This document shows, one piece after another, positions 32,875 to 53,516 of a DNA stretch of 64,000 nucleotides. Each line of letters starts with the position of its first letter. Position 1 is the first letter of the stretch. The translations under genes and the position numbers were made by a program. The notes beneath the pieces are model-generated. The model made no database searches, was not told the origin of the DNA, and was given only the letters and a program-made list of their open reading frames with translations. The DNA comes from a bacterium (GTDB lineage Bacteria > Ratteibacteria > UBA8468 > B48-G9 > JAFGKM01): positions 136,249 through 200,248 of the forward strand of contig JAOAIL010000001.1 of assembly GCA_026414725.1 (NCBI GenBank), read 5' to 3'.

Positions 32875-32877
32875 AAA

Positions 32878-37328: not shown

Positions 37329-37329
37329 C

Positions 37330-39856: not shown

Positions 39857-39917
39857 TTTATATATTATAAACAACAATTAATTTTTTTGTTAATTATATA
39901 TCTTTAAAAAAACACCT

Positions 39918-40181: not shown

Positions 40182-40236
40182 AAACAAAAACTTCTCCTCT
40201 TTTTCCCCTTTTCCCTCGTAGAGAGGGTATGGAGGG

Positions 40237-40590
40237 TTATTCTTTATCAATATCTATAGTAGGTCTTGGTTTTGCAGGATATATCTTCTCATCACCAGGT
40301 TTTTCCCATATCTTGATACCTGATATATCTGCTGCCCTCGCGAGTGCATGTGCTGCAGTAGGTGAGTTTAAAAATAGAAATACAAGACATATAAGTGCTT
40401 TCATCCCTATAGCAGAAAATCCGGTTTTTATTATAGTAGCTAAAAGGACACTCCCTGTACCGAGTGTTACACACTTTGTAGCTGCCTGTAGACGACAGTA
40501 TACATCAGGCATCCTTAAAAGTCCGATACATCCGAGAAGGACAAAACATAATCCAATAGCCATAACTATATAGAAAAGAATATCAATCAT
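40237..40590 (-). CDS. Mrp/Mnh antiporter subunit G-like (MbhC-like)
   Basis: 117 aa, 3 TM. GLLRMPD.Y.RL.A.TK is the MnhG signature. Confidence 0.7.
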   Translation of the reverse strand: MIDILFYIVMAIGLCFVLLGCIGLLRMPDVYCRLQAATKCVTLGTGSVLLATIIKTGFSAIGMKALICLVFLFLNSPTAAHALARAADISGIKIWEKPGDEKIYPAKPRPTIDIDKE

Positions 40591-40837
40591 CTAAATTCCT
40601 CCCTTCTAAGAACTTTGCAAGTGTGATAGTACTTACAAATCCTATAATAGACCAGGCAATGGCTATACTCATATACCACTCTGAACCGGTTGCAAGAGAA
40701 AGGAACACACAGAATATAATTATAATAATACCGAGTATATCAATAGCCACCATTCTATCTGCTGCTCTCGGACCTCTAAATACTCTATAGACACATATAG
40801 ATACACATAAAGCAAGAAAAGCGAATACAAGAATCAT
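40583..40837 (-). CDS. Mrp/Mnh antiporter subunit F-like (MbhB-like)
   Basis: 84 aa, 3 TM. Y R...GP...DR..A.D signature. Confidence 0.6.
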   Translation of the reverse strand: MILVFAFLALCVSICVYRVFRGPRAADRMVAIDILGIIIIIFCVFLSLATGSEWYMSIAIAWSIIGFVSTITLAKFLEGRNLDD

Positions 40838-41319
40838 TCAAATACCTCCTTCAATATCTTCTGGGCCTTTCCACATATTAACTCTTCTGCCTTTATAGGA
40901 TCTGTCGTTTCAACATATATCCAGTGGACATATAAAAACTCTTCATCTATATCCATAGTAAATGTTCCAGGAGCAAGCGTTATGGAATTTGCCAGTATAA
41001 TCCTTCCAAGTGGTGATTTAAGATATAATGGTATCTTTACAACACCTGGCTTGATAGGAGGTCCCGGACTTAAGATACGATATGCCATAATAAAGTTTGC
41101 CTTTATCATCTGCCAGATAAATACAAAGATGAACTTTACAAAAGCAAAATATCGTCTTATCTGGAATGTATGTTCAGGATGATATGGAAATTCTCTTCCA
41201 TAAAGAAGTGTGACGAAAAGAGAAACCAGAATACCTGCAATATAATTACCTGGTTCATTGCTCCATGTTAAAATCTTCCATATACCAAACAAAAGTATAA
41301 AAACAATAAGGTAGTTCAT
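40834..41319 (-). CDS. Mrp/Mnh antiporter subunit E-like (MbhA-like)
   Basis: 161 aa, N-terminal 2 TM plus soluble domain. Position in an Mrp-order gene string. Confidence 0.55.
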   Translation of the reverse strand: MNYLIVFILLFGIWKILTWSNEPGNYIAGILVSLFVTLLYGREFPYHPEHTFQIRRYFAFVKFIFVFIWQMIKANFIMAYRILSPGPPIKPGVVKIPLYLKSPLGRIILANSITLAPGTFTMDIDEEFLYVHWIYVETTDPIKAEELICGKAQKILKEVFE

Positions 41320-42802
41320 CTGTTCTCTCCTATTTTAATATCCATATAGGAAAAACTCTCCATAACAGATACAGACCTATCCAGTGTTTTTTCTCTTATA
41401 CCAGGAATAAGTAATATCCCTGATATAAATACCAGTATTGCAAGAACTACCATAGGGAAAAGAAGTGTTTTTGGTGCTTCTTGTTTTATTGGCTCTTCAA
41501 CTCTGTTGTAATAAACATTCCTCTGTAATTTAAGGAAATACCCCAGAGTAATAATAGATACAACAATACATAAAACCGCTATTCCTGGATAACCTGCCTG
41601 CACTGCTGCAATTATTATGATAAGTTTACTCCAGAAATTACCCATAGGAGGTACACCTGCAATACCTAACATTCCTGTACTCCCTAAAAGTGTTGTTACA
41701 GGCATCTTATCATTCAGTCCTTTTAATTGTTCCATATCTGTAGAACCTGTAACATATTCAATAGCTCCTATATTTAAGAAAAGAAGTGCCTTTGAGAATG
41801 CATGTGCAATAAAATGCATAAGTACACCCAGATTCCCCAGATATCCGCCTATACCCAATCCTATAGCACAGTATCCAATCTGACTTATGGTTGAGTATGC
41901 ATAAAGTCGTTTTATATTTCGCTGTCCATATGCCATAAGTCCTCCGAAAACCATTGACAATATTCCGAATAGTAAAAGCAACAGATTCTTATCTGAGGCA
42001 ATATTATAAATATATTGTTGGTAATCCGTATGAGCACATAAAGTCCTATAACTTTTATGAACATACCTGAAAGTATGGCAGAAATAGGTGCAGGTGCCAT
42101 AGAATGTGCATCAGGTAACCATGTATGAAAAGGTACAAGAGCGGCCTTAAGCGCAAAACCAGATAAGAGAAGTCCTGCAAGGAACCAGAGATGTGAGGTA
42201 GAAAGCCCTGCGGTCTCAGACATAAATGTTGCTATGTTAAGTGTCCCTGTAAATCCGTAGATAAGTGCAATAGCAAAAAGTATCATTGTAGAAGCAATAA
42301 AACTCATGACCGTATATTTCATTGATGCCTCAAGTTCCTCTGCTCTAAGTCCAAAAGCTACAAGAATAAAGGATGCAATTGATGCAATTTCAAAGAAGAC
42401 ATATATGTTGAATATATCCATACTGATAAGCACACCATTCATACCTGCAAGCATAATCAGAAAAATAATATAAAAATAGGATGTCTCTGTATATTTCCTT
42501 ATATAAACAAACGAGTATATCATTATAAGAAGGGCAATAAAATTTGTCATTATAATGAATAAAGAAGAAAGAGGGTCAACCATAAGAACTATGCCTAATG
42601 GTTTTTCCCAGCCACCTACAAAATATACAATTCTTCCATTGGTAAATACATCTATACCAAAAATTATTGATGTTATAGTAGCAAGTAAGACAAAAGATAT
42701 CGCTACTATCCCGGCGGACTTTTCATCTTTCCTTAAAAGTAGAGATATGAGAAATCCAGCCCCCAAATATATTGCCACAGGAAGAATAATAAGATTGTTC
42801 AT
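41316..42802 (-). pseudogene. NuoN/MrpD-like antiporter subunit split by an apparent frameshift near 41912-41981
   Basis: ORF 41912..42802 encodes the N-terminal 280 aa of a NuoL/M/N-fold protein, then runs into an atypical tail (...CCFYYSEYCQWFSEDLWHMDSEI). ORF 41316..41981 in another frame encodes the conserved C-terminal part (NIKRLYAYSTISQIGY...). Together about 495 aa. Confidence 0.55.
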
Positions 42803-43149
42803 CCTTTCAATCTCCTTATCTTATCCATATCAAAAGTTTCATATTTTTCAAAAAGCCGTATGGCAAGTGCTGCAAGAAATGCAACAAATGCAAGGTCTAT
42901 GACAATTGATGTAAGAACAAGTGCCTGTGGTAATGGGTCCACCGCTTTTTCTAAAAAAGTGTTGACCGTCATATTTTCTGTAAGGATAGGCGCAATCCCA
43001 TCCCATTTATAACCTAAAAGTACAAATATAATATTGGTAGCATACCCAACAATATTTATTCCTACAATAATTTTTATGATGTTTTTCTTTGCAATAATTC
43101 CATAAAGTCCTGTAAAAAACATCAGGGCAACAAGTATATAGACAATCAT
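42799..43149 (-). CDS. NuoK/MrpC-like small membrane subunit
   Basis: 116 aa, 3 TM. ...KNIIKIIVGINIVGYATN... like NuoK/MnhC. Confidence 0.65.
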   Translation of the reverse strand: MIVYILVALMFFTGLYGIIAKKNIIKIIVGINIVGYATNIIFVLLGYKWDGIAPILTENMTVNTFLEKAVDPLPQALVLTSIVIDLAFVAFLAALAIRLFEKYETFDMDKIRRLKG

Positions 43150-43622
43150 TTTTCTTCCTCCATACTCTGTTTATATTTAATCCCTTCATCTGTTCTTATT
43201 AACCGTGCCATAGAAAGAATTGCTATGGCAACAAATAGTGCGGAAGCAACCTTCAGACCTATCATTATATTACTGATTATAATTGTTCCTGCACTCCATA
43301 GTTTGAACATATTCCCTTTAGGAAGCAGGTTATAGAAAAATACACCTCCTGCCAGTCCAGATATAGCAACTGCAAGAAAACCCAATGCACCTGCACTGTC
43401 AAGGGATTTTGTAACATTTATAGGTAAGAATCTGAAAACATATTCCTTTCCAAAGGCAAGAAGAAGCAGAACAACTCCACCTGTGAGAACTACTCCACCT
43501 GAAAAGCCACCGCCTGGTGTAATATGCCCATAGAGGACAAGAGACAATCCATAAAGAACTATAAAAGGAAATACAATTCTCGCTATACCCTGAACAATCT
43601 CACTCATTCCATTATTTTTCAT
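43146..43622 (-). CDS. MrpB/MnhB-like membrane subunit
   Basis: GHITPGGGFSGG motif characteristic of MnhB-domain proteins. Confidence 0.55.
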   Translation of the reverse strand: MKNNGMSEIVQGIARIVFPFIVLYGLSLVLYGHITPGGGFSGGVVLTGGVVLLLLAFGKEYVFRFLPINVTKSLDSAGALGFLAVAISGLAGGVFFYNLLPKGNMFKLWSAGTIIISNIMIGLKVASALFVAIAILSMARLIRTDEGIKYKQSMEEEK

Positions 43623-44145
43623 CCTTCCTCCCCTTTACCCTTAAGAGCACTACAACCCCTGCTATCGCTGTAAATATAACGGTTGCCTCTCCTAATGTAT
43701 CATATCCTCTAAAGTCCAGCACTATCGCAGTTACAGTATTAGGTGCCTTCAGAAGAGAAGGAGATGCCTTTAGATATTCTGCCCCCATAGTGATTACCGG
43801 CTGTCCAAAAGGTCTGACAACCTCGGTTCCATGGATCATAAAAACAAACAGGAATAATGCCAGAACTATCAGAGTTACCACCCCGTACAATCCAGATGTG
43901 GACATATCTGCTCTCGTTTCACGCCTTATTGTAGAAAGGAGTATAATCAAAGCCACTATCTCTACAAAAACCTGAACAATTGCTATATCAGGTGCTCCCA
44001 AAAGTAAAAACAGAATACTTAATATAAGTCCCGCAGTTCCCATAGAAACAACAGACGATGTCAAACTCCTTGCTACAATAGATATAACACACCCCACTGT
44101 CATAAGAAGCATCAACACAATTAAAAGTGGTGTATTAAGCATCAT
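43612..44145 (-). CDS. MrpA C-terminal/MnhB-like membrane subunit (MbhD/E-like)
   Basis: AIVLDFRGYDTLGEATVIFTAI motif (MnhB domain). GGAGG RBS 10 nt before ATG 44145, which overlaps the upstream stop (ATGATGA). Confidence 0.55.
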   Translation of the reverse strand: MMLNTPLLIVLMLLMTVGCVISIVARSLTSSVVSMGTAGLILSILFLLLGAPDIAIVQVFVEIVALIILLSTIRRETRADMSTSGLYGVVTLIVLALFLFVFMIHGTEVVRPFGQPVITMGAEYLKASPSLLKAPNTVTAIVLDFRGYDTLGEATVIFTAIAGVVVLLRVKGRKDEK

Positions 44146-45968
44146 CTTCTTATAACCTCCATTATAATTATAAGCCCTGCAAAAAACCATACAAGATACT
44201 TTGCTAAAAGTCCATTCTGTAATAACTTTAGCCGTTCAACCCATAGATTTAAAAATAAACTTCCTCTGTTATATATAAAATCAACTGCCATTACAGCGAT
44301 ATTGATAAAAAACTTCCCAGCATTAGGCAGTAATTTCAGAAAATTCTGGTATATATCAAGCAATCCCATGGTATCAAGTGTATAAAATTTTTTAAGAGGT
44401 GTTATTTCTTTAACCGTCCCATAGAAGTGCGCTCCATCAAAAGCAGTTATCTTATCAGAAATAACCTCGCCCCCTACAAATACCTCTGTCCTTCTCACCT
44501 GTTTAATCCATCTCCTACCTACGACAAATAACAAAGCAAGGATGATGATTGCCAGCACTCCATAATAAGAAGCCATCTGTATGAGATTAATATTTAGCAT
44601 TACATATTCACCTATAGCAGGGAATAAAAACTTCTCTGTCACAAATCCAGGATATAAACCAAAAAGTAAACACCCAATAGCAAGTAATATCATAGGTATA
44701 TTCATAAAAGGACTACCCTCTAATTTTTCTCCTGTTATCTCTTTTTTCCTTACACCCATAAAGGAGTCATTAATAACCTTTACAAAAGATGCAAGTGTTA
44801 ACACACTTCCTAAAAGTGCTGCAATGAATGCAAATGTAGAAATAGGATTGTTCTTTATTAGAAGTGCCTGATATATAATCCACTTTGATACAAAACCATT
44901 AAAAGGTGGTATCCCTGATATTGAAAATGCTGCAACTGTCATTACCATAAATGTAACTGGTAGTTTCCTGAATAATCCGCCATAATCCTCTAAATTCCTT
45001 GAACCAGTTGCTTTTATAAGTACCCCCGCACCGAGGAAGAGTAAACTTTTGAATATAGCGTGGTTGATTGTGTGATAAAGAGCTCCGACAAGTCCTATCT
45101 GGGTTCCACAGGCAATACCGAGAAAGATATATCCAATCTGACTGATACTATGATATGCAAGAAGTCGTTTTATATCATGCTGGATAAGTGCTAAAAAAAC
45201 ACCTCCCAAAAGTGTAAAGATACCGAGAAGCAACATTACTGTCTCCCATCCGATAGACCATGATGGTTTGAATATAACAAAGTAAAAGCGTATCAGTGCA
45301 TATATCCCTGTTTTACTCATTGCACCAGAAAACAATGCAGATATAGGTGTTTGAGCAGAAGTATATGCATCAGGAAGCCATGAGTTAAGCAGGAATATCC
45401 CCACTTTGACACCTGTCCCTAAAAGGATAGAAAAGAAAAATATATGTTTCCATAAAAGATTTTCTTCTAATAGCCATATTCCTAATATCCCGAAAAGTAG
45501 AAATATACTTCCTACACCTGTCATAATAATATATTTAAGAGAAGCACTTCTTGCCTCATCTGTATCAGCGAAAAGTACAAGAAAGAAACTTGCTATTGTC
45601 ATTATTTCCCAGTATATATACAGAGCAATGAGTGAATGGGAAAGTACTACACCCAACATACCCCCGAGAAAGAGGAATAACAACCCATCATATACAAAGT
45701 TTACTTCCGAATTGTACCACTGAGAAAAAGATACACTGCACAATCCTATGAAAGAAATAAGTATTGCGAATAAGAGTCCGAGTTTCTCTCCACTGGAAAG
45801 AATGTCATAGTTTACATACATTGAATAGAAACATGAAAACAGCACTGCCAGAACCCCAAGGAGAGATACCCACTTCCTTATATTCCTTCCTGCCCCCTGA
45901 ATAAGCAGATGAACGAAAGCAATCCCGAAGCTTATAACAACCGGAAGAAACCATATGTTTACATTCAA
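44142..45968 (-). CDS. NuoL/MrpA-like antiporter subunit (MbhH-like)
   Basis: 608 aa, about 16 TM. Conserved ...WLPDA.....P.SAL..... and HAFFKSLLF-type blocks of complex-I antiporter-like subunits. Confidence 0.75.
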   Translation of the reverse strand: MNVNIWFLPVVISFGIAFVHLLIQGAGRNIRKWVSLLGVLAVLFSCFYSMYVNYDILSSGEKLGLLFAILISFIGLCSVSFSQWYNSEVNFVYDGLLFLFLGGMLGVVLSHSLIALYIYWEIMTIASFFLVLFADTDEARSASLKYIIMTGVGSIFLLFGILGIWLLEENLLWKHIFFFSILLGTGVKVGIFLLNSWLPDAYTSAQTPISALFSGAMSKTGIYALIRFYFVIFKPSWSIGWETVMLLLGIFTLLGGVFLALIQHDIKRLLAYHSISQIGYIFLGIACGTQIGLVGALYHTINHAIFKSLLFLGAGVLIKATGSRNLEDYGGLFRKLPVTFMVMTVAAFSISGIPPFNGFVSKWIIYQALLIKNNPISTFAFIAALLGSVLTLASFVKVINDSFMGVRKKEITGEKLEGSPFMNIPMILLAIGCLLFGLYPGFVTEKFLFPAIGEYVMLNINLIQMASYYGVLAIIILALLFVVGRRWIKQVRRTEVFVGGEVISDKITAFDGAHFYGTVKEITPLKKFYTLDTMGLLDIYQNFLKLLPNAGKFFINIAVMAVDFIYNRGSLFLNLWVERLKLLQNGLLAKYLVWFFAGLIIIMEVIRR

Positions 45969-45978
45969 CTTTCTCCTC

Positions 45979-47346
45979 CTATCTTATCACCAGCATAATA
46001 CCGAATAATAATGAAATAGTTGCTAAAATTACCACAGAGACAACCATAAAGGGAAATCCTTTCCCTGTTGTATCTACTTCTTTTACATCCCCCATAAATA
46101 CATACCTGAATAAACGAACCATATAAAGAAGGGTTAGTGCTGATGTAAGTATTGCAATAAGCCCATAGAATATATGTCTCTTTATAAGCATACCTGTTAT
46201 TGCCTCAAGTTTTCCATAAAAACCAGGTAATGGTGGAATACCTGCAACAGAAAACATACTGAAGATAAAAGCATATGTAACAAGCGGTGATTTTTTCATC
46301 AACCCTCCCATCTGCCTTATATCTTTTGTCCCAAATAGTTTTTCTGTAATTCCTGCACATAGAAATAGACATCCCTTACCCAGTGCATGTGCTACATAAA
46401 ATATAACAATTCCACGAGTAGCAATAGGATTAAACATCATAAGCCCTGCTATCATAAATCCTAACTGGCTTACTGTGGAAAAAGCAAGAATTTTTTTAAT
46501 ATCTGTCTCTCTTAAAGCAATAATACCCGCAGCAACACTGCTGAATAGAGCAAGATATCCTGCCCATATAACATTTCCAGATACAGTAAGCGTTGCCCCG
46601 AAAATCCGCGCTAGTCCATATACTCCTATCTTAACAAGTACTGCTGCGTGAAGGAATGATGTAACAGGTGTTGGGGCTACAGAGGCATCAGGAAGCCATG
46701 TATGGAAGGGGAAAGTGGCTGACTTTGTTAGAATCCCTAAAAATATTAGTGCAAAGACAAAAGGAGGTATCTCCTGCCCTATTATCTGAGAAATACTTAG
46801 AGAACCAGTAGTTATGTAAACATATACAAATCCCAGAAGCATAAAACCAGCTCCTGCACTGGTAATAAGGAATGCTTTATCTGCCTTAAGGAGATGTTCA
46901 TCTTTCCTGTAGAAACCAATAAGTTTCCACGAGCAAAGCCCCGCAAGTTCCCAGAAAAGATAAAGGGAGATGAGATTATCAGAAAATACCACCCCCATCA
47001 TACTCCCCACAAAAACAAGTCCCCAGAAAGAAAATTTTTGCTGTTCAGAATGATCTTCTTTAGCAAAATACCCCATTGCAAACAAATATATAAATATCCC
47101 TATAAAAACAGAAGTCGCTCCAAATATAAAACTTAAAGGGTCGGCAATAAAAAAGATGTTTTCTACTGGATAATATAAGAACCTTGTAGAAAATACAGTA
47201 TTAGCAATATTACCTAATAGAAACATCTGTATCAGGAGGAAAATAAAACCTGCTTTAATAGAAAACGATGCAGGTATAACCTCCACTAAAACCGCTGATA
47301 GAAATGGAACTATAAGTATCCACAACAAGATATTATTCGGTACCAT
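45979..47346 (-). CDS. NuoM/NuoN/MrpD-like antiporter subunit
   Basis: 455 aa. HTWLPDA..APTPV..... and ..HA..K..LF blocks. Confidence 0.7.
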   Translation of the reverse strand: MVPNNILLWILIVPFLSAVLVEVIPASFSIKAGFIFLLIQMFLLGNIANTVFSTRFLYYPVENIFFIADPLSFIFGATSVFIGIFIYLFAMGYFAKEDHSEQQKFSFWGLVFVGSMMGVVFSDNLISLYLFWELAGLCSWKLIGFYRKDEHLLKADKAFLITSAGAGFMLLGFVYVYITTGSLSISQIIGQEIPPFVFALIFLGILTKSATFPFHTWLPDASVAPTPVTSFLHAAVLVKIGVYGLARIFGATLTVSGNVIWAGYLALFSSVAAGIIALRETDIKKILAFSTVSQLGFMIAGLMMFNPIATRGIVIFYVAHALGKGCLFLCAGITEKLFGTKDIRQMGGLMKKSPLVTYAFIFSMFSVAGIPPLPGFYGKLEAITGMLIKRHIFYGLIAILTSALTLLYMVRLFRYVFMGDVKEVDTTGKGFPFMVVSVVILATISLLFGIMLVIR

Positions 47347-47351
47347 AATAT

Positions 47352-47969
47352 TTATTTTCCCTTTTTCTCATCACTTATAAACGCAAGCCGTCTACATTTG
47401 GGACAGACAACTTTTAATAAATCTGTCCTCTGTATAGGTGGAATAACTTTTTCTTCAAAATCAGTTTTTATATTAAACATCTCCATAAGTTGCATAAGAA
47501 GAACTGGCTGTGCAAATCCTAAATTCCCGAGTTTTTTTAATACCCATTGAAGATGTTTTTCAGTACCTATAACCGTTCTGCAGTGTATACATGTGATAAG
47601 TTTATGTTCCACAGAATCAAGTGTATCCTGTTCATTAAAATATGCAATATCAAATTTTGTTGTAAGTTTAATCCCCTCACCTGTGATGCAATTTCTTTCA
47701 CACTCCCTACAGAATATACATCTTGATGGATACTGTATCAATACTCTTTTAGCAATACCATTTTCCAAAGTATCTTTCATATCAATTGCTTTTGCAGGAC
47801 ATACCTGAAAGCATGCCCCACAACCCACACAGATATCCTTATTATATTCTGGTTTTCCCCTGTATCTTAAAGGAGGTGTATGCGGTTTATAAGGAAAGTC
47901 GGTTGTATATGGCTTTGATAATATTCCTTTAACCGCCTCTTTCAGTTCTCTTATCTTGGGTTTCTTCAT
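47352..47969 (-). CDS. NuoI-like 2x[4Fe-4S] ferredoxin subunit (MbhN/HycF-like)
   Basis: C.GCGAC...CP and C..C..C...CP cluster motifs in a 205-aa protein next to the large subunit. Confidence 0.7.
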   Translation of the reverse strand: MKKPKIRELKEAVKGILSKPYTTDFPYKPHTPPLRYRGKPEYNKDICVGCGACFQVCPAKAIDMKDTLENGIAKRVLIQYPSRCIFCRECERNCITGEGIKLTTKFDIAYFNEQDTLDSVEHKLITCIHCRTVIGTEKHLQWVLKKLGNLGFAQPVLLMQLMEMFNIKTDFEEKVIPPIQRTDLLKVVCPKCRRLAFISDEKKGK

Positions 47970-47971
47970 AT

Positions 47972-49165
47972 TTATATCTCTCTTTTAATCTTTTCTGTCT
48001 TCTCTATAGATTTCTTTAAAAGATAATCAAAGTCGTAAAGTTTTCTTCTATTTTCTGCCTCATAGACAGCCACCCTTTCCGTACAACAATAACAGGGGTC
48101 AACACCTGCTAAAATTATCGCTACATCTGCTATGGTCTGTCCTATACAACTTGCTTTAAACGTAGGTATATTGGTATAACTCGGTGCTCTTATTTTATGT
48201 CTCACAGGTCTATTTGTCCCATCACTTCTAACATAGTGAAAACATTCTCCCCTCGGTGCCTCATGGCGTCCTATACCTTCTCCTTCAGGTATACTCCTTA
48301 CCTCTGCCTGTATCTCTCCTTTTTTCCCTTCAATTGCATCAAGACACTGCTCTATTATTTTTATTGATTCAAAACTTTCTAACAACCTAACCACTGCTTT
48401 GTCAAATACATCACCATTCTCTGTAGTAATTATTTTCCAATCAACAAGTTGATATGCAGCATATGGGTCATCCTTTCTTATATCTATTGCAACACCACTT
48501 GCCCTTGCAATAGGACCTACTGCACCAAATGCCTTTATATGTTCTTTTGTAAGAACACCTACCCCTTTAAGCCGTGCTGCGAGAACAGGGTCATCCAGAA
48601 CTGCACCTGTAAGCATCTCTAACTGTCCTTTGAGTTCAGAAAGTACCTTTCTCAGTTTAGGAATATCTTCATTCTCTATATCTCGGCGTACTCCACCAAT
48701 TTTGAACATTGCATAATGATTTCTGTTTCCTGTTATTATTTCAAACATATCAAGTACCGGTTCCCTGTATTTCCATGCCCACATAAACACGGTATTATAT
48801 CCGAGGAAGTGCCCAGCCAGTCCTACCCAGAGCAGATGACTGTGAAGTCGTTCAAGTTCTCCTATAACACTTCTTATATACCTTGCTCTTTCAGGCACTG
48901 TTATCCCGAGAAGGTCCTCCACTGCATTACAGTATGCAAACGGATGCGATGTGGAACATATACCACATATTCTTTCAACCAAAAATGTTACCTGGTCCCA
49001 GTGTTTACTTTCTGAAAGCTTTTCTATTCCACGGTGGTTATAGCCCGCCTGCCATTCTACATCCACAACTTTTTCTCCATCACAATAAAGAGCAAAAAAC
49101 TCTGGTTCTTCAAGAAGTGGATGATACGGACCTATTGGAACTATCACTTTTCTTTTATGTTCCAT
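47972..49165 (-). CDS. group 4 [NiFe]-hydrogenase large (catalytic) subunit, NuoD-like
   Basis: N-terminal L1 motif ERICGICSTSH. C-terminal L2 motif DPCYCCTER followed by a 33-aa extension (substrate for a HycI-type protease). About 400 aa as in Ech/Mbh/Hyc large subunits. Confidence 0.9.
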   Translation of the reverse strand: MEHKRKVIVPIGPYHPLLEEPEFFALYCDGEKVVDVEWQAGYNHRGIEKLSESKHWDQVTFLVERICGICSTSHPFAYCNAVEDLLGITVPERARYIRSVIGELERLHSHLLWVGLAGHFLGYNTVFMWAWKYREPVLDMFEIITGNRNHYAMFKIGGVRRDIENEDIPKLRKVLSELKGQLEMLTGAVLDDPVLAARLKGVGVLTKEHIKAFGAVGPIARASGVAIDIRKDDPYAAYQLVDWKIITTENGDVFDKAVVRLLESFESIKIIEQCLDAIEGKKGEIQAEVRSIPEGEGIGRHEAPRGECFHYVRSDGTNRPVRHKIRAPSYTNIPTFKASCIGQTIADVAIILAGVDPCYCCTERVAVYEAENRRKLYDFDYLLKKSIEKTEKIKREI

Positions 49166-49592
49166 AGTTTTCTTTCCTTAATGGATAATTTCCTTTCTCC
49201 CAGTCATCTCTTAAGAGGAAATGTTTAATATCAGGATGTCCTGTAAAGTTTATCCCTAAAAGTTCCCACATCTCACGTTCAATGTAAGAGATACCTGGAA
49301 TAATATCAATAAGTGTTTCTATTTCTGGTTTTTCCTTATCAAGATACACCCTTAAAGAAACAATAATACCTTCTTTATCAAGACCGAAATGATAGAGAAT
49401 CTCAAAACTGTCAAAATTTTCTATTCCTGATGCGATAATATATCTTGCATCAATATCTTTAAAGATAATTCTTGCACACTCCTTGATATCTTTTCTGTCA
49501 ACTGTAATATAAATCCGCTGGTTTTTATGGATATTTATATCTTTAATCCTATTCCCGAGTTTTTCTTTCAACATTCCTGTTATATCTCTCAT
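49155..49592 (-). CDS. NuoC-like (30-kDa) hydrogenase subunit
   Basis: 145 aa with the ...ERE..... / F.GHP......L-type NuoC blocks. ATGA overlap with the small subunit. Confidence 0.65.
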   Translation of the reverse strand: MRDITGMLKEKLGNRIKDINIHKNQRIYITVDRKDIKECARIIFKDIDARYIIASGIENFDSFEILYHFGLDKEGIIVSLRVYLDKEKPEIETLIDIIPGISYIEREMWELLGINFTGHPDIKHFLLRDDWEKGNYPLRKENYGT

Positions 49593-50005
49593 TTCAGTTT
49601 CTCCAGAACCTTTACTATACCTGCAATCATTGCCTCTGGTTTTGGTGGACACCCTGGTATATAAACATCTACAGGTATAAGTTTATCAATAGGACCTCCC
49701 ATCTGATATCCATCTCTAAAGATACCGCCTGTACAGGCACATGCCCCTATAGCTACAACAATACAGGGTTTTGCTGTTTGTTTATACACTTCTCTTAACC
49801 TTTCAACACATTTTTTATTCACTATCCCTGTACACAAAAGAACATCTGCATGTCTCGGACTTCCTACGAGTACAATACCAAACCTTTCAATATCAAACCT
49901 CGGTGTGAGACAGTCAAGGATTTCTATATCACAGTTATTACATGACCCACCTGACACATGATAAACCCATAGTGATTTTTTTAATGCCTTCGTTTTTATA
50001 TTCAT
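49589..50005 (-). CDS. group 4 [NiFe]-hydrogenase small subunit, NuoB-like
   Basis: GGSCNNCDIE...C...GACACTGG...GCPP is the proximal-cluster cysteine pattern of NuoB/EchC/MbhJ. AGGAGAG RBS before ATG 50005. Confidence 0.8.
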   Translation of the reverse strand: MNIKTKALKKSLWVYHVSGGSCNNCDIEILDCLTPRFDIERFGIVLVGSPRHADVLLCTGIVNKKCVERLREVYKQTAKPCIVVAIGACACTGGIFRDGYQMGGPIDKLIPVDVYIPGCPPKPEAMIAGIVKVLEKLK

Positions 50006-50073
50006 ATCTTTATCTCTCCTGCATTCTATTTTCCTCTCTCCATACAAGAAGGAAAGGGAGAGGATGAAATTTT

Positions 50074-51003
50074 TCACCACCCTGTCATTGCCAGAAATAT
50101 CCCCGCTATTCCTAATAAGGTAAACCATCCCCAGAAAAGCCGTAGTGTCTGGTCTATCCTTAACCGGGGATTGGTATTCTTAATAAGTATAAAAAGAATA
50201 AGTATAATAACATATTTAAGTATTCCTGTTATAATACCTGCAATGGAACTAAAACTTATTCCTCCTAAATATAAAGATATAAGAAATAACGGACCGGTAA
50301 TAATCAGTATTGCCTTTGTAAGTTTATATAATCCCAGTAGTATACCTGAATACTCAATAAGTGCCCCACCTGCCAACTCTCCCTCTGCCTCCGCAAGGTC
50401 AAAAGGTACCAACCCTAACTTCCCCTGTAATGCAAAAACCCCTATGATAAAGCCAACAATTCCAGAAGGAGAATCAAGTATTATCCCGCTATGCTGTTGA
50501 AACTGGATTATATTACCGAGTGAAGTTGTTAAACCACTTTTTATAGATGAAATAACCAATCCACAAACAAAAGGAAGTTCGTATCCCATAAGTAATTTCA
50601 TCTCCCTGCTTATTCCTACTGCCGCTAAGACATTACCTGAGGCACTCCCACCGAGTATGATTGAAAGAGAAGGTATGGTAAGCAGATAAAGAATAAGTAT
50701 AGCATCCGTAGGGAAACCTGCATTTGTCTTAAATATCATTATTAAAATTGCTCCTGCTGTTGTGGTAGCTATTAATCCGAGTACCGGTGCTGTAATAAAC
50801 ATAAAGATATTTGCTTTTTCTGGTATCAGAACCTCTTTACCTGCAAGTTTTACAAAATCAGCAAAGTTTTGGTACCATGGAGGACCTATACGAAACTGTA
50901 GCCGTGCTGTAACTTTTCTATCCAGCCACATAGCCATAAATCCCAATATACCAAAGGATATTAAAACCCCTATAAAGTATAGAAGTATGGATAAATTACT
51001 CAT
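50074..51003 (-). CDS. NuoH-like membrane subunit (MbhM/HycD/EchB-like)
   Basis: DRK..AR.Q.R.GP motif near the N-terminus, 8 TM. ATG 51003 overlaps the upstream stop (ATGA); an alternative TTG start is at 51030. Confidence 0.8.
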   Translation of the reverse strand: MSNLSILLYFIGVLISFGILGFMAMWLDRKVTARLQFRIGPPWYQNFADFVKLAGKEVLIPEKANIFMFITAPVLGLIATTTAGAILIMIFKTNAGFPTDAILILYLLTIPSLSIILGGSASGNVLAAVGISREMKLLMGYELPFVCGLVISSIKSGLTTSLGNIIQFQQHSGIILDSPSGIVGFIIGVFALQGKLGLVPFDLAEAEGELAGGALIEYSGILLGLYKLTKAILIITGPLFLISLYLGGISFSSIAGIITGILKYVIILILFILIKNTNPRLRIDQTLRLFWGWFTLLGIAGIFLAMTGW

Positions 51004-51491
51004 TTTTTTATTCCGTATGTATCCAGCCAATTGAAGACCTTTACAACTATATGCTCTCCAATTTGATATATATTGGTTTTATCCTTAATATCTCTTTCAT
51101 CTAAATAACTTATGGCACCACTTTTACAGGTTTTTACACAGAGAGGTTCTTCTCCTTCTTTCAACCGCCCGATACAAACATCACACCTGCTTACAAGATA
51201 TGGTATCAGTTCTTGTAATATCGTTCCGAAAGGACAGGCAAGTGAACAGGTCTTACAGGATACACAAATGATATTTGAACGTTTTACCCTGCCTTCCTCT
51301 CTTTTTAATGCACCTGTCGGACAACTATTCACACAGGGATAGTCCTCACATCTTCTGCATGCAAAAAGGAATGCAATCTCTTCTCTTAAAGCAGATATTC
51401 CTCTATTTTCTGGATGCATCTTATAACTGCATCTTATACCTTCATCCTGAAGAGTCAGAAATTTATCATAATCAATAAAGAGCTTCTTCAT
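51000..51491 (-). CDS. HycB-like polyferredoxin (multiple 4Fe-4S binding motifs)
   Basis: C..C.DYPC...CP, C..C..C.LACP and C..C......EPLC..TC cysteine arrays. GAGGT RBS 7 nt before ATG 51491. Confidence 0.65.
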   Translation of the reverse strand: MKKLFIDYDKFLTLQDEGIRCSYKMHPENRGISALREEIAFLFACRRCEDYPCVNSCPTGALKREEGRVKRSNIICVSCKTCSLACPFGTILQELIPYLVSRCDVCIGRLKEGEEPLCVKTCKSGAISYLDERDIKDKTNIYQIGEHIVVKVFNWLDTYGIKK

Positions 51492-51501
51492 AACTTTAAC
51501 C

Positions 51502-52332
51502 TCATGCCCATATATTGGGCTCATCCTTTATCTGGTCATAGGTAAATACAGGACCATCTTTACATACAAACAAATCTCCTATAAGACAGTGTCTGCAATG
51601 TCCTACAGCACAATACATCTTCCTTTCCATAGAAAGATATATCTGTGTATCTTTATATCCAATCTCTAAAAGTTTCAATGTGGTAAACTTCATCATTATA
51701 GGAGGACCACAAACAACAGCCACAGAATTTTTTATATCAATATCAAGCCCGTCAAGTGTCTTTGTTACAACTCCTTCTCCGTATTTCCATGCTTCATCCT
51801 TCTTATCCACAGTTATCCTGAAAGATAAAGGGTGTTTCTCACAGAGTTTTTGCCATTTATCAAATATCATATCTTTATATATATAATCAGCAGGTGTTTT
51901 CGCTCCACAACAGAAAACAATTCTTCTATAATTGGTAATGGTCTCTACTAAAGCAAAAAAGAGCGACCGTATGGGAGCAAGTCCTACTCCCCCACCAACC
52001 AACAACACTTCCTTACCATTATAAACATCCAGAGGATAGGGCTTCCCATAAGGACCACGGACACCTACTATATCACCTTTTTTAAGATTATGTATTGCAT
52101 CTGTTACCCTTCCTGTCCTCATTACTGTAAACTCAAGTTTTTCTCTATCATAAGGAGATGAAGAAGGAGTAAAGGGTGCTTCACCTATACCTGGAACTGT
52201 AAGAGATGCAAACTGCCCGGCAAGGAAAGAAAATTCTTCCTCAGGTTTCAGGACAACTGTCTTTATAGTAGGAGATTCAGTAATAACATCCCTTACTTCA
52301 CACCTTATAGGTCTGTAAATATTTTTATCCAT
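51502..52332 (-). CDS. sulfhydrogenase gamma / AsrB / PyrK-like FAD- and NAD(P)-binding subunit with C-terminal [2Fe-2S]
   Basis: Ferredoxin-NADP-reductase-like fold: FAD site ...PYD..., NAD(P) site LLVGGGVGLAPI, C-terminal C....C..C...........C cluster (CAVGHCRHC...C). Confidence 0.7.
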   Translation of the reverse strand: MDKNIYRPIRCEVRDVITESPTIKTVVLKPEEEFSFLAGQFASLTVPGIGEAPFTPSSSPYDREKLEFTVMRTGRVTDAIHNLKKGDIVGVRGPYGKPYPLDVYNGKEVLLVGGGVGLAPIRSLFFALVETITNYRRIVFCCGAKTPADYIYKDMIFDKWQKLCEKHPLSFRITVDKKDEAWKYGEGVVTKTLDGLDIDIKNSVAVVCGPPIMMKFTTLKLLEIGYKDTQIYLSMERKMYCAVGHCRHCLIGDLFVCKDGPVFTYDQIKDEPNIWA

Positions 52333-52339
52333 TTTATAC

Positions 52340-53347
52340 CTACTGTCGCTCCCTCAATACTTCTGTAATAACCTTCCTTTTATCAATTTTTCCTGCACAT
52401 CCAACAATACATCTTCCACAACCGGTACATCCGGTTATTCCATAATTTTCCACCATATACCAGTACTTACATAACAGACGGTTTGCATATCTATCCTGAA
52501 GCGTTGGTCTGGGAGAATCACCTGCTGCCATTCTTGCATATCCAGGAAAGAGACAACTGTCCCATACTTTAACCTTCCTGTCCTCTTCCTGTGTTCCTGT
52601 ATCTTCAAGTAAAAAGCATACACATGAGGGACAGTTGTTTGTACAACTTCCACACTGAACACAATTTTCTATATCTTTTGGTCTTCTCCATAACTCCGTC
52701 TGGTATGCCCCTTTGAATTTTTCCTTAACCCCTTCAAAATAAAAATCCCTGTTGGACTCCTTAATTATCTCTACTGTTTTCTTTCTATTCTGTTCCCTTT
52801 TATTTATCTGTTCCTTAGTTGCCTGAAAAAATTTCTGGTCTCCACCTATAAAAGAACACCCTTTATCAGAACCAATATCTACAAGCAGACCCTCTTCAAG
52901 AAAAGATATATTCAAGTCAAATACATCTTCAGGATAAGGATGTGTCCCTATAAGTTCACAGAAACAGGTAGGATAAGGAGAAAGACAGTCAGAACCTATA
53001 ATAAGAACTTTCTCTCTTCTATTAGTATAGTTAGGGTCTCTGTAGTCCCCTTCCATGAAAATCTTATCCAGTATCTTTAACCCATTTATATCACAGGCAG
53101 TAACACCCATAATAACAATCTCCGGTATCTGATACACCTCAGGGACAACCCTCTCTTTGAAAGGGGTGAAAAACAGTTTAAGTGGTTCAACAGTCCTTAC
53201 CCTGTTATATATAATATCAATATCTGGAGCAACCTTTTTATAAAATAGTTTCTTTTCATATTCAAAAGGGGCAAAAATAGAAATTATTTCTGCTTTCCCT
53301 TTTATAAAACTATCCCAATCCTTTTTGGTTATATATAATGTCTCCAT
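52340..53347 (-). CDS. sulfhydrogenase beta / AsrA-like iron-sulfur subunit
   Basis: 335 aa with CVQCGSCTNNCPSCVC and CTGCGRCIVGC cysteine motifs and length typical of HydB/AsrA. First gene of the minus-strand hydrogenase operon. Confidence 0.65.
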   Translation of the reverse strand: METLYITKKDWDSFIKGKAEIISIFAPFEYEKKLFYKKVAPDIDIIYNRVRTVEPLKLFFTPFKERVVPEVYQIPEIVIMGVTACDINGLKILDKIFMEGDYRDPNYTNRREKVLIIGSDCLSPYPTCFCELIGTHPYPEDVFDLNISFLEEGLLVDIGSDKGCSFIGGDQKFFQATKEQINKREQNRKKTVEIIKESNRDFYFEGVKEKFKGAYQTELWRRPKDIENCVQCGSCTNNCPSCVCFLLEDTGTQEEDRKVKVWDSCLFPGYARMAAGDSPRPTLQDRYANRLLCKYWYMVENYGITGCTGCGRCIVGCAGKIDKRKVITEVLRERQ

Positions 53348-53365: not shown

Positions 53366-53516
53366 AGTCATCCAAAAAAATTTGTAATAGATTAAGACCA
53401 ATTTTTATAGTTGTCAAATTTTTTTAATGGGGTAATCATACCAGATAAAAATACTTCTGTCAAAAAATTTTTAAATAGTTGATTTTAGTTAATAAGACAG
53501 ATATAATAATTAAACT

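Follow-up and report, generated by a model that had tools for sequence, protein, structure and literature searches.

A Hun-type, Mrp-linked group 4 [NiFe] hydrogenase operon with a probable NAD(P)H-type input module in an uncultured bacterium

The locus described here raises the question of which electron carrier is served by a complex-I-like [NiFe] hydrogenase whose genes are headed by a flavoprotein module and followed by a set of Mrp genes. The window (the whole stretch of 64,000 nucleotides that was analysed) comes from an uncultured bacterium; among named groups, the Omnitrophota are closest to it. On its minus strand, from 53347 to 40237, there are 17 closely spaced genes in 18 ORFs. A preliminary description had given about 18 genes; its order, coordinates and strand stand, but the count is 17 because the MrpD-like gene is split. 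Every gene has a domain or family match in Pfam or NCBIfam and, together with the PDB matches, these are consistent with the labels assigned earlier. The features are as follows.

53435..53463, minus strand: best candidate for a sigma-70-like promoter, TTGACA-17-TG-TATGAT
52340..53347, minus strand: HunA, AsrA/HydB-like FeS subunit, 335 aa (Pfam Fer4_22, 1.1e-25)
51502..52332, minus strand: HunB, AsrB/HydG-like flavoprotein, 276 aa (Pfam FAD_binding_6, NAD_binding_1, DHODB_Fe-S_bind)
51000..51524, minus strand: HunC, HycB/CooF-type multi-[4Fe-4S] ferredoxin, ORF of 174 aa (Pfam Fer4_11, 1.5e-14)
50074..51030, minus strand: HunD, NuoH/MbhM-like membrane anchor (Pfam NADHdh, 2.2e-59)
49589..50128, minus strand: HunE, NuoB/HycG-like small subunit (Pfam Oxidored_q6, 5.5e-31)
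49155..49652, minus strand: HunF, NuoC/MbhK-like subunit (Pfam Complex1_30kDa, 1e-24)
47972..49165, minus strand: HunG, [NiFe] large subunit, 397 aa (Pfam Complex1_49kDa, NiFeSe_Hases)
47352..47969, minus strand: HycF/NuoI-like 2x[4Fe-4S] subunit, HunP equivalent (NCBIfam 'formate hydrogenlyase complex iron-sulfur subunit', 1.5e-28)
45979..47346, minus strand: extra antiporter-like subunit, 455 aa, MrpA-N-terminal/NuoL type (Pfam Proton_antipo_M, 1.9e-65)
44142..45968, minus strand: antiporter-like subunit, 608 aa, MbhH/MbsH'/HycC type (Pfam Proton_antipo_M, 2.4e-59)
43612..44190, minus strand: MbhD+MbhE fusion, equivalent to the MrpA C-terminal domain (Pfam MbhD, 3.3e-12; MbhE, 2e-6)
43146..43622, minus strand: MrpB/MnhB-like subunit (Pfam MnhB, 5e-22)
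42799..43149, minus strand: MrpC/NuoK-like subunit (Pfam Oxidored_q2, 1.9e-24)
41316..42802, minus strand: MrpD/MbsH-type antiporter-like subunit, interrupted (Pfam Proton_antipo_M, two halves)
40834..41319, minus strand: MrpE-like subunit (Pfam MNHE, 8.3e-41)
40583..40837, minus strand: MrpF-like subunit (Pfam MrpF_PhaF, 9.5e-16)
40237..40590, minus strand: MrpG-like subunit, last structural gene (Pfam PhaG_MnhG_YufB, 3.4e-24)

Spacing at the junctions of genes A to Q lies between -11 and +68 nt, and 4-nt overlaps of the ATGA type are frequent. Start-codon analysis gives ATG 51491 as the probable start of HunC. The probable starts of HunD (ATG 51003, giving a 4-nt overlap), HunE (ATG 50005; the orthologue alignment begins at residue 42), HunF (ATG 49592, with an ATGA overlap with the stop of the preceding gene) and the MbhD+MbhE fusion (ATG 44145) likewise lie inside their ORFs, and the TTG start of the 608-aa antiporter-like gene is preceded by a perfect AGGAGG. 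The promoter candidate is upstream of hunA in a 170-bp divergent intergenic region and has 11 of 12 consensus matches plus an extended -10 TG; it is a consensus match only, the total number of such sites being no greater than the shuffled expectation. Additionally, genes A, B and C are found directly upstream on the same strand in all 58 related loci whose upstream flank is 5.2 kb or longer, in at least seven phyla. The junctions, the promoter position and this conservation argue against the possibility, raised earlier, that hunABC form a separate transcription unit.

The hydrogenase core is complex-I-like. HunG has the L1 (RICGICSTSH) and L2 (DPCYCCTER) motifs and the 33-aa extension (after R364) that had been read from the sequence, and is 44% identical to MbhL (6CFW_L) and 38% identical to HycE (7Z0S_E). 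Identity to the large subunits of 80 related loci is 64-91% over the best tblastn segment, the 91% being a partial match (L007), and CYCC is 98-100% conserved among them. The earlier assignment to the group 4, Mrp-linked [NiFe] hydrogenases is correct. HunE has the cysteine motifs CxxC, GACA and PGCPP, and the HycF-like subunit, whose best PDB match is HycF (7Z0S_F), has an additional CxxC...CxxC tail.

The three antiporter-like subunits of the preliminary description correspond to three PF00361 genes, matching MrpA-N, MbhH/MbsH' and MrpD respectively, and each of them, as read from the sequence, keeps the Glu of TM5 and the Lys motifs of TM7, TM8 and TM12. The best PDB matches of the 455-aa protein are MrpA (6Z16_A, 7QRU_A) and those of the 608-aa protein are MbhH (6CFW_H) and the 618-aa 6U8Y_X, with HycC (7Z0S_C) also matched; 6U8Y_X was deposited as 'NADH dehydrogenase subunit M' and is read here as MbsH'. 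The canonical Hun operon, in contrast, is without the extra MrpA-N-type subunit, orthologues of which (at least 35% identity) were found only in L001, L002, L029, L067 and L072. The HycF-like gene is last in 55 related loci but directly follows the large-subunit gene in the window, and is beside G elsewhere only in L001 and L002. The window and these two close relatives are thus a sub-variant, characterised by both the added MrpA-N-type subunit and the position of the HycF-like gene beside that of the large subunit.

The overall design is not an unrecognised combination but that of the genome-described, widespread 'Hun' complex. A 'Hun' operon of 16 subunits that shares the CGIC-CYCC signature has been published (Glass et al., 2021; 10.1101/536078), as has an 'enigmatic' cluster of a group 4 hydrogenase, Mrp, cooF, asrA and asrB with its closest relatives in Omnitrophica (PMC6349859). 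The name 'Mbh-Mrp-oxidoreductase type' was used in a study that noted it in Saganbacteria, Elusimicrobia and Atribacteria (10.1101/765248), and in Atribacteria the hydrogenase is reported to be co-transcribed with the oxidoreductase genes, either ferredoxin or NADH being allowed as the donor (Bird et al., PMC6469976). Cultured bacteria are among the carriers, for example Labilibacter sediminis CG51 (locus L073) and Kosmotoga olearia. The large subunit belongs to a recognised subgroup in which AsrA/AsrB-like genes are the rule (58/58 loci), although not to a biochemically characterised one: as the preliminary description had supposed, our literature search found no biochemical characterisation of any Hun-type complex.

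The input module is homologous to part of a soluble enzyme. The closest solved homologues of HunA and HunB are the beta and gamma subunits of the soluble, NADPH-dependent sulfhydrogenase I (SHI) of P. furiosus (9NEZ_B, E 1.7e-39, and 9NEZ_C, E 3.4e-49), in agreement with the earlier reading of a soluble-hydrogenase-type diaphorase module. HunA has two CxxCxxCxxxC motifs and a Cys set at the N-terminus, and five of its motifs, with 15 cysteines in all, were compared in 61 sequences (the window and 60 orthologues): 14 of these cysteines are 100% conserved, and C242 is not listed among them. HunB has FAD-binding and NAD(P)-binding domains and a C-terminal [2Fe-2S] domain. In 68 sequences (the window and 67 orthologues) its GEAPFTPSS and CGPPxMM motifs, four [2Fe-2S] cysteines and the glycines, A119, P120 and R122 of the GGGxGxAPxR loop are 95-100% invariant, and position 145 is K or R in 99%. 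HunB of the window bacterium is 50-57% identical to that of Bacteroidales, against 30-35% (HunA) and about 27-37% (HunC), which indicates that the flavoprotein is under strong constraint. Scores against the NCBIfam models (HunA against ShyB/HydB/AsrA, HunB against ShyC/HydG/AsrB) are far below the equivalog cut-offs; the pair is a subfamily of its own and could have another substrate. The third gene, previously called a polyferredoxin, encodes a HycB/CooF-type multi-cluster protein and not a long polyferredoxin; its closest solved chains are HDCR HycB4, FdnH and HycB of E. coli FHL.

The peripheral arm would resemble that of formate hydrogenlyase, with the HycB-like HunC, the HycF-like subunit, the HycG/NuoB-like subunit and the NiFe large subunit; formate hydrogenlyase has formate dehydrogenase at the distal input, whereas Hun has the flavoprotein pair HunA and HunB. 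Most likely, electrons are exchanged reversibly between NAD(P)H and H+/H2. Electrons would pass from the FAD and [2Fe-2S] of HunB to the FeS clusters of HunA, and on through HunC, the HycF-like subunit and the NuoB-like cluster to the NiFe site, and H+ or Na+ movement would be coupled via the NuoH-like anchor, the three antiporter-like subunits and the MrpA-C/B/C/E/F/G homologues. NAD(P)H (NADH or NADPH) is plausible as the best-supported donor or acceptor, but the earlier statement that such an oxidoreductase (NAD(P)H:H+) is implied by the combination goes too far. Reduction of protons to H2 by NAD(P)H is about 18 kJ/mol uphill (+18 kJ/mol) under standard conditions, so the direction presumably depends on conditions. 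Formation of H2 from NAD(P)H might require a very low partial pressure of H2 or the drive of the ion gradient; with plentiful H2, the complex could conserve energy by oxidising H2 to form NAD(P)H. Taken together, we consider that the locus probably forms one operon encoding a Hun-type, Mrp-linked group 4 [NiFe] hydrogenase with an NAD(P)H-type input module and this NAD(P)H/H2 chemistry.

Against this, unless H2 is very low, the thermodynamics disfavour outward ion pumping by H2 evolution from NAD(P)H, whereas with ferredoxin they favour it. The only paper that names the complex explicitly proposes reduced ferredoxin as the donor, with entry via HunABC (10.1101/536078), and ferredoxin is likewise assumed in papers on Omnitrophota and Cloacimonadota. 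The enzyme would then be MBH-like, receiving ferredoxin electrons via HunABC or directly at the HycF-like subunit; the FAD/NAD site of HunB would be vestigial or regulatory and H2 evolution would drive Na+/H+ export. This fits the generic description of HydDB group 4g as putatively ferredoxin-coupled; MbhL, to which the large subunit is 44% identical, is ferredoxin-dependent, and the presence of pta and ackA in the window points to a fermentative metabolism, which would produce reduced ferredoxin. However, MBH accepts ferredoxin without a HunAB-like module, HunA, HunB and HunC are kept in 58/58 loci, and the near-total invariance of the HunB flavin and nicotinamide motifs across phyla is hard to explain without a bound pyridine nucleotide. 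To our knowledge, every characterised HunB relative (SHI gamma, AsrB, PyrK, NfnA) uses NAD(P)(H). Ferredoxin coupling with ion export is thus possible, if unlikely. A dual-port enzyme, with a ferredoxin site besides the NAD(P)(H) site of HunB, might make H2 from both carriers; alternatively, it might be a ferredoxin:NAD(P)+ oxidoreductase coupled to ion movement, H2 being an overflow product. We rate such an enzyme as distinctly improbable. Several clusters at the surface are available along the long FeS wire of HunA, HunC and the HycF-like subunit, and the wording 'ferredoxin or NADH' of Bird et al. (PMC6469976) is consistent with it. Additionally, Ace Lake Omnitrophota MAGs have one identifiable hydrogenase each, which in Ca. 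Saelkia and Ca. Gorgyraea is Mrp-linked group 4g (Williams et al., 2021); a single hydrogenase in such carriers must rebalance both NADH and ferredoxin, a point that is ours and not stated there. The Pfam and NCBIfam matches, however, include no bifurcating flavoprotein (NfnB/GltD-like, HydB/NuoF-like or EtfAB-like), and sequence identifies no ferredoxin docking site. We know of no bifurcation by SHI beta/gamma.

The homology of HunAB to sulfhydrogenase beta/gamma and AsrAB also allows a reductase of sulfur, polysulfide or another small molecule, as the 'sulfhydrogenase' pair is in vitro, linking H2 or ferredoxin to sulfur-compound reduction and not to NAD(P)+. Bird et al. (PMC6469976) raise such a role, and some Hun operons have a molybdopterin oxidoreductase between HunB and HunC (PMC6349859; 10.1101/536078). 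However, AsrC/siroheme and molybdopterin subunits are absent from the window operon and the 58 examined loci, where the B-C gap is at most 681 nt. Reduction of S0 by SHI is generally held to be non-physiological, and we find this role highly improbable. Finally, the interrupted gene could be a sign of operon decay. DNA alignment of the MrpD-like gene with its closest orthologue (L001), which is intact (494 aa) and 82-84% identical, shows a 2-nt insertion near 41981-41985 that leaves two ORFs, 41912-42802 and 41316-41981. The halves cover positions 1-148 and 150-294 of the Pfam Proton_antipo_M profile, and the repaired protein aligns end-to-end with MrpD (7QRU_D, E 1.6e-67). The complex may be impaired in this genome, or the assembly may be wrong. 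It is nevertheless very unlikely that the locus is a relic encoding a non-functional complex: the remaining 16 genes are intact with conserved motifs, an in-frame TTG at the break starts the downstream half, so that two polypeptides could still be made, and a single indel is a frequent artefact of metagenome assemblies.

Maturation genes extend the cluster downstream to 34613.

39918..40250, minus strand: HypA-like nickel chaperone (Pfam HypA, 1.6e-10, profile positions 1-66 of 112 only)
38720..39877, minus strand: fusion of a HypB-type GTPase and a HycI-type C-terminal endopeptidase (Pfam cobW, 1.7e-22; HycI, 1.5e-21)
34613..36928, minus strand: HypF carbamoyltransferase (Pfam HypF_C_2, zf-HYPF, Sua5, Acylphosphatase)

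The HypA-like protein, with a probable start at ATG 40181 (87 aa), keeps the N-terminal MHE motif and is without the zinc CxxC motifs. The HypB-HycI fusion is likely to be the processing enzyme for the 33-aa tail of the large subunit; in L003, HypB and HycI are two separate genes.

The operon forms an uninterrupted run of ORFs on the minus strand of the window, from 53347 to 40237. Its genes, named from Pfam, NCBIfam and PDB sequence searches, are as follows, from first to last.

52340-53347, minus: HunA, an AsrA/HydB-like FeS protein (Fer4_22; the best solved homologue is the beta subunit of Pyrococcus furiosus sulfhydrogenase I, SHI, 9NEZ_B, E 1.7e-39)
51502-52332, minus: HunB, an AsrB/HydG-like flavoprotein (FAD_binding_6, NAD_binding_1 and DHODB_Fe-S_bind; 9NEZ_C, E 3.4e-49)
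51000-51524, minus: HunC, a HycB/CooF-type ferredoxin of 174 aa (Fer4_11)
50074-51030, minus: NuoH-like protein (Pfam NADHdh)
49589-50128, minus: NuoB-like protein (Pfam Oxidored_q6)
49155-49652, minus: NuoC-like protein (Pfam Complex1_30kDa)
47972-49165, minus: [NiFe] large subunit (Complex1_49kDa and NiFeSe_Hases)
47352-47969, minus: HycF/NuoI-like 2x[4Fe-4S] protein (top PDB match HycF, 7Z0S_F)
45979-47346, minus: MrpA-N-type antiporter-like protein of 455 aa (Proton_antipo_M)
44142-45968, minus: MbhH-type antiporter-like protein of 608 aa (Proton_antipo_M)
43612-44190, minus: fusion of MbhD and MbhE (Pfam MbhD, MbhE)
43146-43622, minus: MnhB (Pfam MnhB)
42799-43149, minus: MnhC/NuoK (Pfam Oxidored_q2)
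41316-42802, minus: MrpD-like antiporter-like protein, split (Proton_antipo_M)
40834-41319, minus: MnhE (Pfam MNHE)
40583-40837, minus: MnhF (Pfam MrpF_PhaF)
40237-40590, minus: MnhG (Pfam PhaG_MnhG_YufB)

The ORFs and the Pfam, NCBIfam and PDB matches bear out the genes that had been listed for 40237-53347 on the minus strand, and the motifs RICGICSTSH and DPCYCCTER and the 33-residue C-terminal tail of the large subunit were all found in the sequence. The sequence hallmarks of a group 4 hydrogenase are all present: a NuoD-like large subunit with both CxxC NiFe motifs, NuoB-like and NuoH-like proteins and antiporter-like subunits. By gene content and homology, the preliminary description was right to read the architecture as a complex-I-like, Mrp-linked group 4 hydrogenase with a diaphorase-like head. 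Its estimate of about 18 genes fits the 18 ORFs, one gene being split, but the genes number 17; the third gene, there called a polyferredoxin, encodes instead the 174-aa HycB-type ferredoxin. There is also a CxxC...CxxC pair (CIHC ... CPKC) in the C-terminal half of the HycF/NuoI-like protein (47352-47969), beyond its two ferredoxin motifs, which suggests that this protein may hold an additional metal site, as in HycF-type subunits.

The same combination had been taken as unrecognised, but several genome studies have already described it. Glass et al. (2021; 10.1101/536078) named it the Hun complex, with 16 subunits (HunA-P), of which HunAB are AsrAB-like, HunC is an FeS protein and HunG, the large subunit, has an unusual CGIC...CYCC signature; Mrp homologues come after. 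In that study HydDB places the Hun large subunit in group 4g, yet as a distinct cluster, and the carriers are Atribacteria, Firmicutes, Omnitrophica, Elusimicrobia, Bacteroidetes and Kosmotoga. In Saganbacteria (RX5A), Matheus Carnevali et al. (2019; PMC6349859) described an 'enigmatic' group 4 hydrogenase together with Mrp-like subunits, cooF, asrA and asrB; Zixibacteria and Omnitrophica hold its nearest relatives. Meheust et al. (2020; 10.1101/765248) used the label 'Mbh-Mrp-oxidoreductase type' and stated that the function of the oxidoreductase was unknown. The Atribacteria complex is co-transcribed with the adjoining oxidoreductase (Bird et al.; PMC6469976), and the Mrp-linked hydrogenases of Omnitrophota were placed in group 4g with ferredoxin coupling assumed (Williams et al.; PMC8542988). 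No biochemical characterization of any member was found in the literature on Hun, group 4g, AsrA/AsrB with Mrp, Kosmotoga or Atribacter, and on this point the preliminary description, which knew of no characterized example, holds.

The window operon shares most of the Hun traits. AsrA-like and AsrB-like genes head it, without AsrC; the gene of the Fer4_11 protein HunC stands between those of HunB and the NuoH-like protein; a NuoH/B/C-like core accompanies a large subunit with L1 CGIC and L2 CYCC; and homologues of Mrp/Mnh A-G (Pfam MbhD/MbhE, MnhB, Oxidored_q2, Proton_antipo_M, MNHE, MrpF and MnhG) come after the hydrogenase genes. Omnitrophica, Elusimicrobia and Bacteroidetes are carriers in both data sets. 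In contrast with the published operon of 16 subunits, in which the NuoI-like HunP comes last, there are 17 genes in the window operon, with an additional MrpA-N-type subunit, the HycF/NuoI-like gene relocated next to the large subunit and a frameshifted MrpD-like gene. The locus is a member of a described and widespread family, in which it represents a small sub-variant marked by the additional MrpA-N-type subunit and the displaced HycF-like gene; it is otherwise ordinary for its family.

Species-representative genomes were searched with an alignment of large-subunit relatives, giving at least 592 matching stretches. The best 80 of these (L001 to L080) were all examined and confirmed as the Hun operon type. 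They come from Omnitrophota, Bacteroidales, Rikenellaceae, Marinilabiliaceae, Cloacimonadota, Elusimicrobiota, Desantisbacteria, Ratteibacteria, a Clostridia MAG and one isolate, Labilibacter sediminis CG51 (L073). Every window protein was run by tblastn on the related loci, and synteny was scored where the upstream flank was at least 5.2 kb (58 loci). The AsrA-like, AsrB-like and Fer4_11 genes lie directly upstream of the NuoH-like gene and on the same strand in 58/58 of these loci, and HunA-B-C are therefore an integral and conserved part of the operon.

If each gene is given its most plausible start codon, neighbouring structural genes are separated by -11 to +68 nt from the first to the last, and many of the junctions are 4-nt overlaps of the ATGA type; the gaps at the head of the operon are, in order, 7 nt, -23/+10 nt and -4 nt. 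There is a 170 bp gap between hunA and a divergent aminotransferase gene, and it holds the top sigma-70-like site on the minus strand (TTGACA-17-TG-TATGAT, 53463-53435), a consensus match that is weak evidence when taken alone. The same type of scan, equally weak by itself, found no credible terminator between the operon genes. Taken together, the short gaps, the lack of convincing terminators, the promoter-like site upstream of hunA and the universal synteny are grounds to reject a separate transcription unit for HunA-B-C. Scans for tRNA and Rfam families found nothing relevant within or adjoining the operon.

In 55 related loci the genes follow a canonical order, A-B-C-NuoH-NuoB-NuoC-Large, followed by an MbhH-type antiporter, MbhD/E, MrpB, MrpC, MrpD, MrpE, F and G, with the HycF/NuoI-like gene last. 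The HycF-like gene directly follows the large subunit only in the window and in two close relatives, L001 and L002, among the best 80 of at least 592 stretches, and the gene for the 455-aa antiporter-like protein is inserted in the same three loci. Remoter copies of the latter (37-42% identity) are found in L029, L067 and L072. Comparison with PDB structures assigns the 455-aa protein to the MrpA-N-terminal/NuoL type (6Z16_A, 7QRU_A), the 608-aa protein to the MbhH/MbsH'/HycC type and the repaired split protein, which aligns end to end with 7QRU_D, to the MrpD/MbsH type. The variant therefore joins an MbhH-type subunit to a complete Mrp set, in which MrpA is represented by two genes, that for the 455-aa protein and the MbhD/E fusion. 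Read against what is established for complex I and Mrp, the sequences of all three antiporter-like proteins retain the conserved Glu of TM5 and the Lys motifs of TM7, TM8 and TM12 (WE/FE; K..P.H.WLP). Three antiporter-like subunits instead of one, as had been pointed out, is correct relative to the P. furiosus membrane-bound hydrogenase (MBH), but the canonical Hun relatives have two. The Hyf/FHL-2 and Thermococcus 4b complexes also carry several antiporter-like subunits.

In comparison with the orthologue in L001, which is 82-84% identical and intact at 494 aa, the MrpD-like gene of the window has two nucleotides inserted, and they divide it into two ORFs. An in-frame TTG lies exactly at the break (41912-41985, minus), and two polypeptides could be made. 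The frameshift could be local decay of the locus, but it could equally be an assembly error or, because of the TTG at the break, a tolerated split.

By its best tblastn segment, the large subunit is 64-91% identical to its counterparts in the 80 loci, the best of at least 592 stretches, the 91% being a partial match in L007. Its identity to MbhL (6CFW) is 44% and to HycE (7Z0S) 38%, in comparison with at least 64% within the clade; the top database match is at only 89%. The L2 motif is CYCC, as opposed to CLSC in MbhL and CYSC in HycE, and CYCC is 98-100% conserved in these best 80 loci. All four NiFe-ligating cysteines are present and invariant, which rules out complex I or an Ehr/Mbx-type complex without a NiFe site. 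Between two of the NiFe ligands there is an extra cysteine, C360 (L2, DPCYCCTER), which is 98% conserved in the 80 loci.

HunA and HunB are homologous over their full length to the beta and gamma subunits of SHI, a soluble hydrogenase that depends on NADPH, and they conserve the cysteines of the clusters and the motifs for FAD and NAD(P). Conservation of HunB was measured on 68 sequences, that of the window and 67 orthologues from several phyla. In this set the FAD motif GEAPFTPSS, the motif CGPPxMM and the four [2Fe-2S] cysteines are 95-100% invariant; in the nucleotide loop G113 is conserved at 95%, G114, G115 and G117 at 100% and A119, P120 and R122 within 95-100%; and position 145 is basic in 99% of the sequences. 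Between phyla HunB is 50-57% identical, in comparison with 30-35% for HunA and about 27-37% for HunC. This conservation sharpens the case that the Hun family would use NAD(P)(H). The best solved matches of HunC are connector ferredoxins (HDCR HycB4 and HycB3, FdnH and HycB of formate hydrogenlyase), and that of the NuoI-like subunit is formate hydrogenlyase HycF, with MbhN behind. The peripheral arm therefore appears more like that of formate hydrogenlyase than that of MBH. In formate hydrogenlyase the HycB/HycF pair wires a dedicated donor enzyme to the hydrogenase, and HunA and HunB would occupy the position of this donor. To our knowledge, all characterized relatives of the HunB fold (SHI gamma, AsrB, PyrK and NfnA) use NAD(P)(H). 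This wiring, the SHI-like HunAB, the invariant HunB motifs and the NAD(P)(H)-using relatives all point to a path NAD(P)H <-> FAD/[2Fe-2S] (HunB) <-> FeS (HunA) <-> HunC <-> HycF-like <-> NuoB-like <-> NiFe, with electron transfer coupled to H+ or Na+ movement in the membrane arm. The path, its substrate, the ion coupling and the direction are all what we infer.

By standard potentials, making H2 from NAD(P)H at 1 atm H2 requires about +18 kJ/mol, and the reaction turns exergonic only if H2 is at roughly 10 Pa or below and the NADPH pool is reduced. The complex would therefore evolve H2 either where H2 is very scarce or by drawing on the ion gradient. Alternatively, the complex may run in the direction of H2-driven NAD(P)+ reduction, with energy conserved. 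With regard to NAD(P)H, the ion-translocating NAD(P)H:H+ oxidoreductase of the preliminary description is a reasonable reading. That the Hun-type complexes, the 17-gene form included, are reversible enzymes of this kind seems to us a serious possibility, although at slightly less than an even chance.

The published model for Hun, in which ferredoxin is the donor (10.1101/536078), is possible. It is thermodynamically simpler and fits the 44% identity to MbhL, which is ferredoxin-dependent, but it does not account for an FAD/NAD(P) protein that is intact, under strong constraint and kept in every locus, although MBH works without such a module. An enzyme that is dual-port or confurcating would have to do without any known type of bifurcating flavoprotein, there being none in the operon, and we regard it as improbable. 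It is also unlikely that HunAB act as a sulfur-compound reductase, because there is no AsrC or molybdopterin subunit in the operon. Anaerobic sulfite reductase AsrABC itself was rejected: there is no AsrC, siroheme or NIR_SIR gene in the operon, and the NCBIfam scores are well under the cut-offs (TIGR02910, 112.6 bits against 323; TIGR02911, 209.6 bits against 289).

Some published Hun loci have a molybdopterin subunit between HunB and HunC. Such a formate hydrogenlyase variant is absent from the window and from the 58 loci, in which the largest B-C gap is 681 nt, and no molybdopterin or CODH gene was found in the operon or among the scanned window ORFs. In many Bacteroidales-type loci (L010, L011, L019, L021, L030, L033 and L046) there are about 590-680 nt between the HunB and HunC matches, which points to either an extended N-terminus of HunC or a small additional gene that the window lacks.

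Compared with characterized complexes, the operon has homologues of MbhM, J, K, L, N, H, D, E and A-C of the group 4d MBH (6CFW) and shares with it an Mrp-derived membrane arm and a C-terminal tail. MBH, however, is a 14-subunit complex that takes electrons directly from ferredoxin, without a module like HunABC, whereas the window has these three additional input genes; MBH also has a single antiporter-like subunit, against three in the window operon. With formate hydrogenlyase (group 4a/4b) the operon has in common the arrangement of a donor module, a HycB-type ferredoxin and a HycF-type subunit, a HycC-like subunit (the 608-aa protein) and, as in group 4b, a hydrogenase joined to a full Mrp set. 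In contrast, its donor module is a flavoprotein pair and not a molybdopterin formate dehydrogenase or CODH, and its large subunit, at 38% identity to HycE, lacks the N-terminal NuoC-like fusion of that protein. The homology of HunA and HunB to group 3b SHI (9NEZ) beta and gamma and to Salmonella AsrAB is full length, but their partners are membrane-bound group 4 subunits and not the soluble group 3 alpha/delta dimer, there is no AsrC and their scores are well below the equivalog cut-offs. With complex I (NuoA-N) there is a shared L-shaped core of NuoB/C/D/H/I-like subunits, three antiporter-like subunits, a NuoK-like subunit and an input module of the pyridine-nucleotide type at the tip of the peripheral arm. 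This module, however, is unrelated to NuoEFG (an FAD/FNR fold as opposed to an FMN/NuoF fold, with no NuoE, F or G homologues), the 'quinone site' subunit keeps all four NiFe-ligating cysteines and there are homologues of MrpE, F and G. If NAD(P)H is indeed the donor, Hun would be a hydrogenase counterpart of complex I in which an FNR-fold flavoprotein replaces NuoEFG.

The electron donor of the Hun or 'group 4g-like' Mrp-linked hydrogenases matters for how the metabolism of many uncultured anaerobes is modelled (Omnitrophota, Atribacterota, Cloacimonadota, Elusimicrobiota, sediment Bacteroidales and Saganbacteria), and published models of the Hun type are split between ferredoxin and NADH. 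An ion-pumping hydrogenase that is coupled to NAD(P)H would add a coupling site to those known in respiration, and a widespread one, given at least 592 matching stretches in species-representative genomes; H2 production and redox balance would have to be budgeted differently for ecosystems of the subsurface and of sediments. Fermenters in low-H2 sediments could then release the electrons of NAD(P)H as H2 together with an ion gradient or at its expense, or energy could alternatively be conserved from H2-dependent NAD(P)+ reduction. In the sub-clade, the extra MrpA-N-type subunit would alter the ion/electron stoichiometry. The donor and the direction of coupling are a testable question for the family. 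The grounds for experiments are the occurrence of HunABC in 58/58 loci, the invariant flavin and nucleotide motifs, the formate hydrogenlyase-like arm and the existence of at least one cultured carrier among the 80 loci, L. sediminis CG51.

Functionally, the cluster runs on downstream with genes for a HypA-like protein, a HypB-HycI fusion, two unrelated proteins and HypF. The HypA-like protein (39918-40250, minus; probable start 40181) has about 87 aa, with the N-terminal MHE nickel motif but without the CxxC...CxxC zinc site, and its Pfam match covers only positions 1-66 of the 112 of the profile. Genes similar to it were found only in the closest loci, L001 to L003, among the best 80 of at least 592. 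A single ORF of 385 aa (38720-39877, minus) joins a HypB-type GTPase (cobW domain) to a maturation endopeptidase of the HycI type; in L003 the two are encoded by adjacent genes, 15686-16330 and 16345-16740. The genes of an AAA_14/DUF4143 ATPase and a cyclophilin-like protein (36954-38583, minus) interrupt the maturation set between hypB-hycI and hypF. No hypC, hypD or hypE was found among the scanned window ORFs of at least 100 aa, a cut-off that lies above the size of HypC (about 77 aa) in a scan that left out 62670-63155 and 63166-63783.

The nearest named relatives of the S1 protein and of the hydrogenase of the window are from Candidatus Omnitrophica/Omnitrophota. Phosphotransacetylase, acetate kinase and two V-type ATPase subunits are encoded in the window, and these genes would suit a fermenting anaerobe that exploits an ion gradient. 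The V-type ATPase F and A genes are at 32572-34644 on the plus strand, the A gene converging on hypF with an overlap of about 32 nt; because no B or D subunit gene comes after A, the V-type ATPase genes appear to be dispersed. Finally, there is an ORF of 469 aa without a Pfam match (10285-11694, plus) between the gene of a large TPR protein and an ExbB/ExbD/TonB set.
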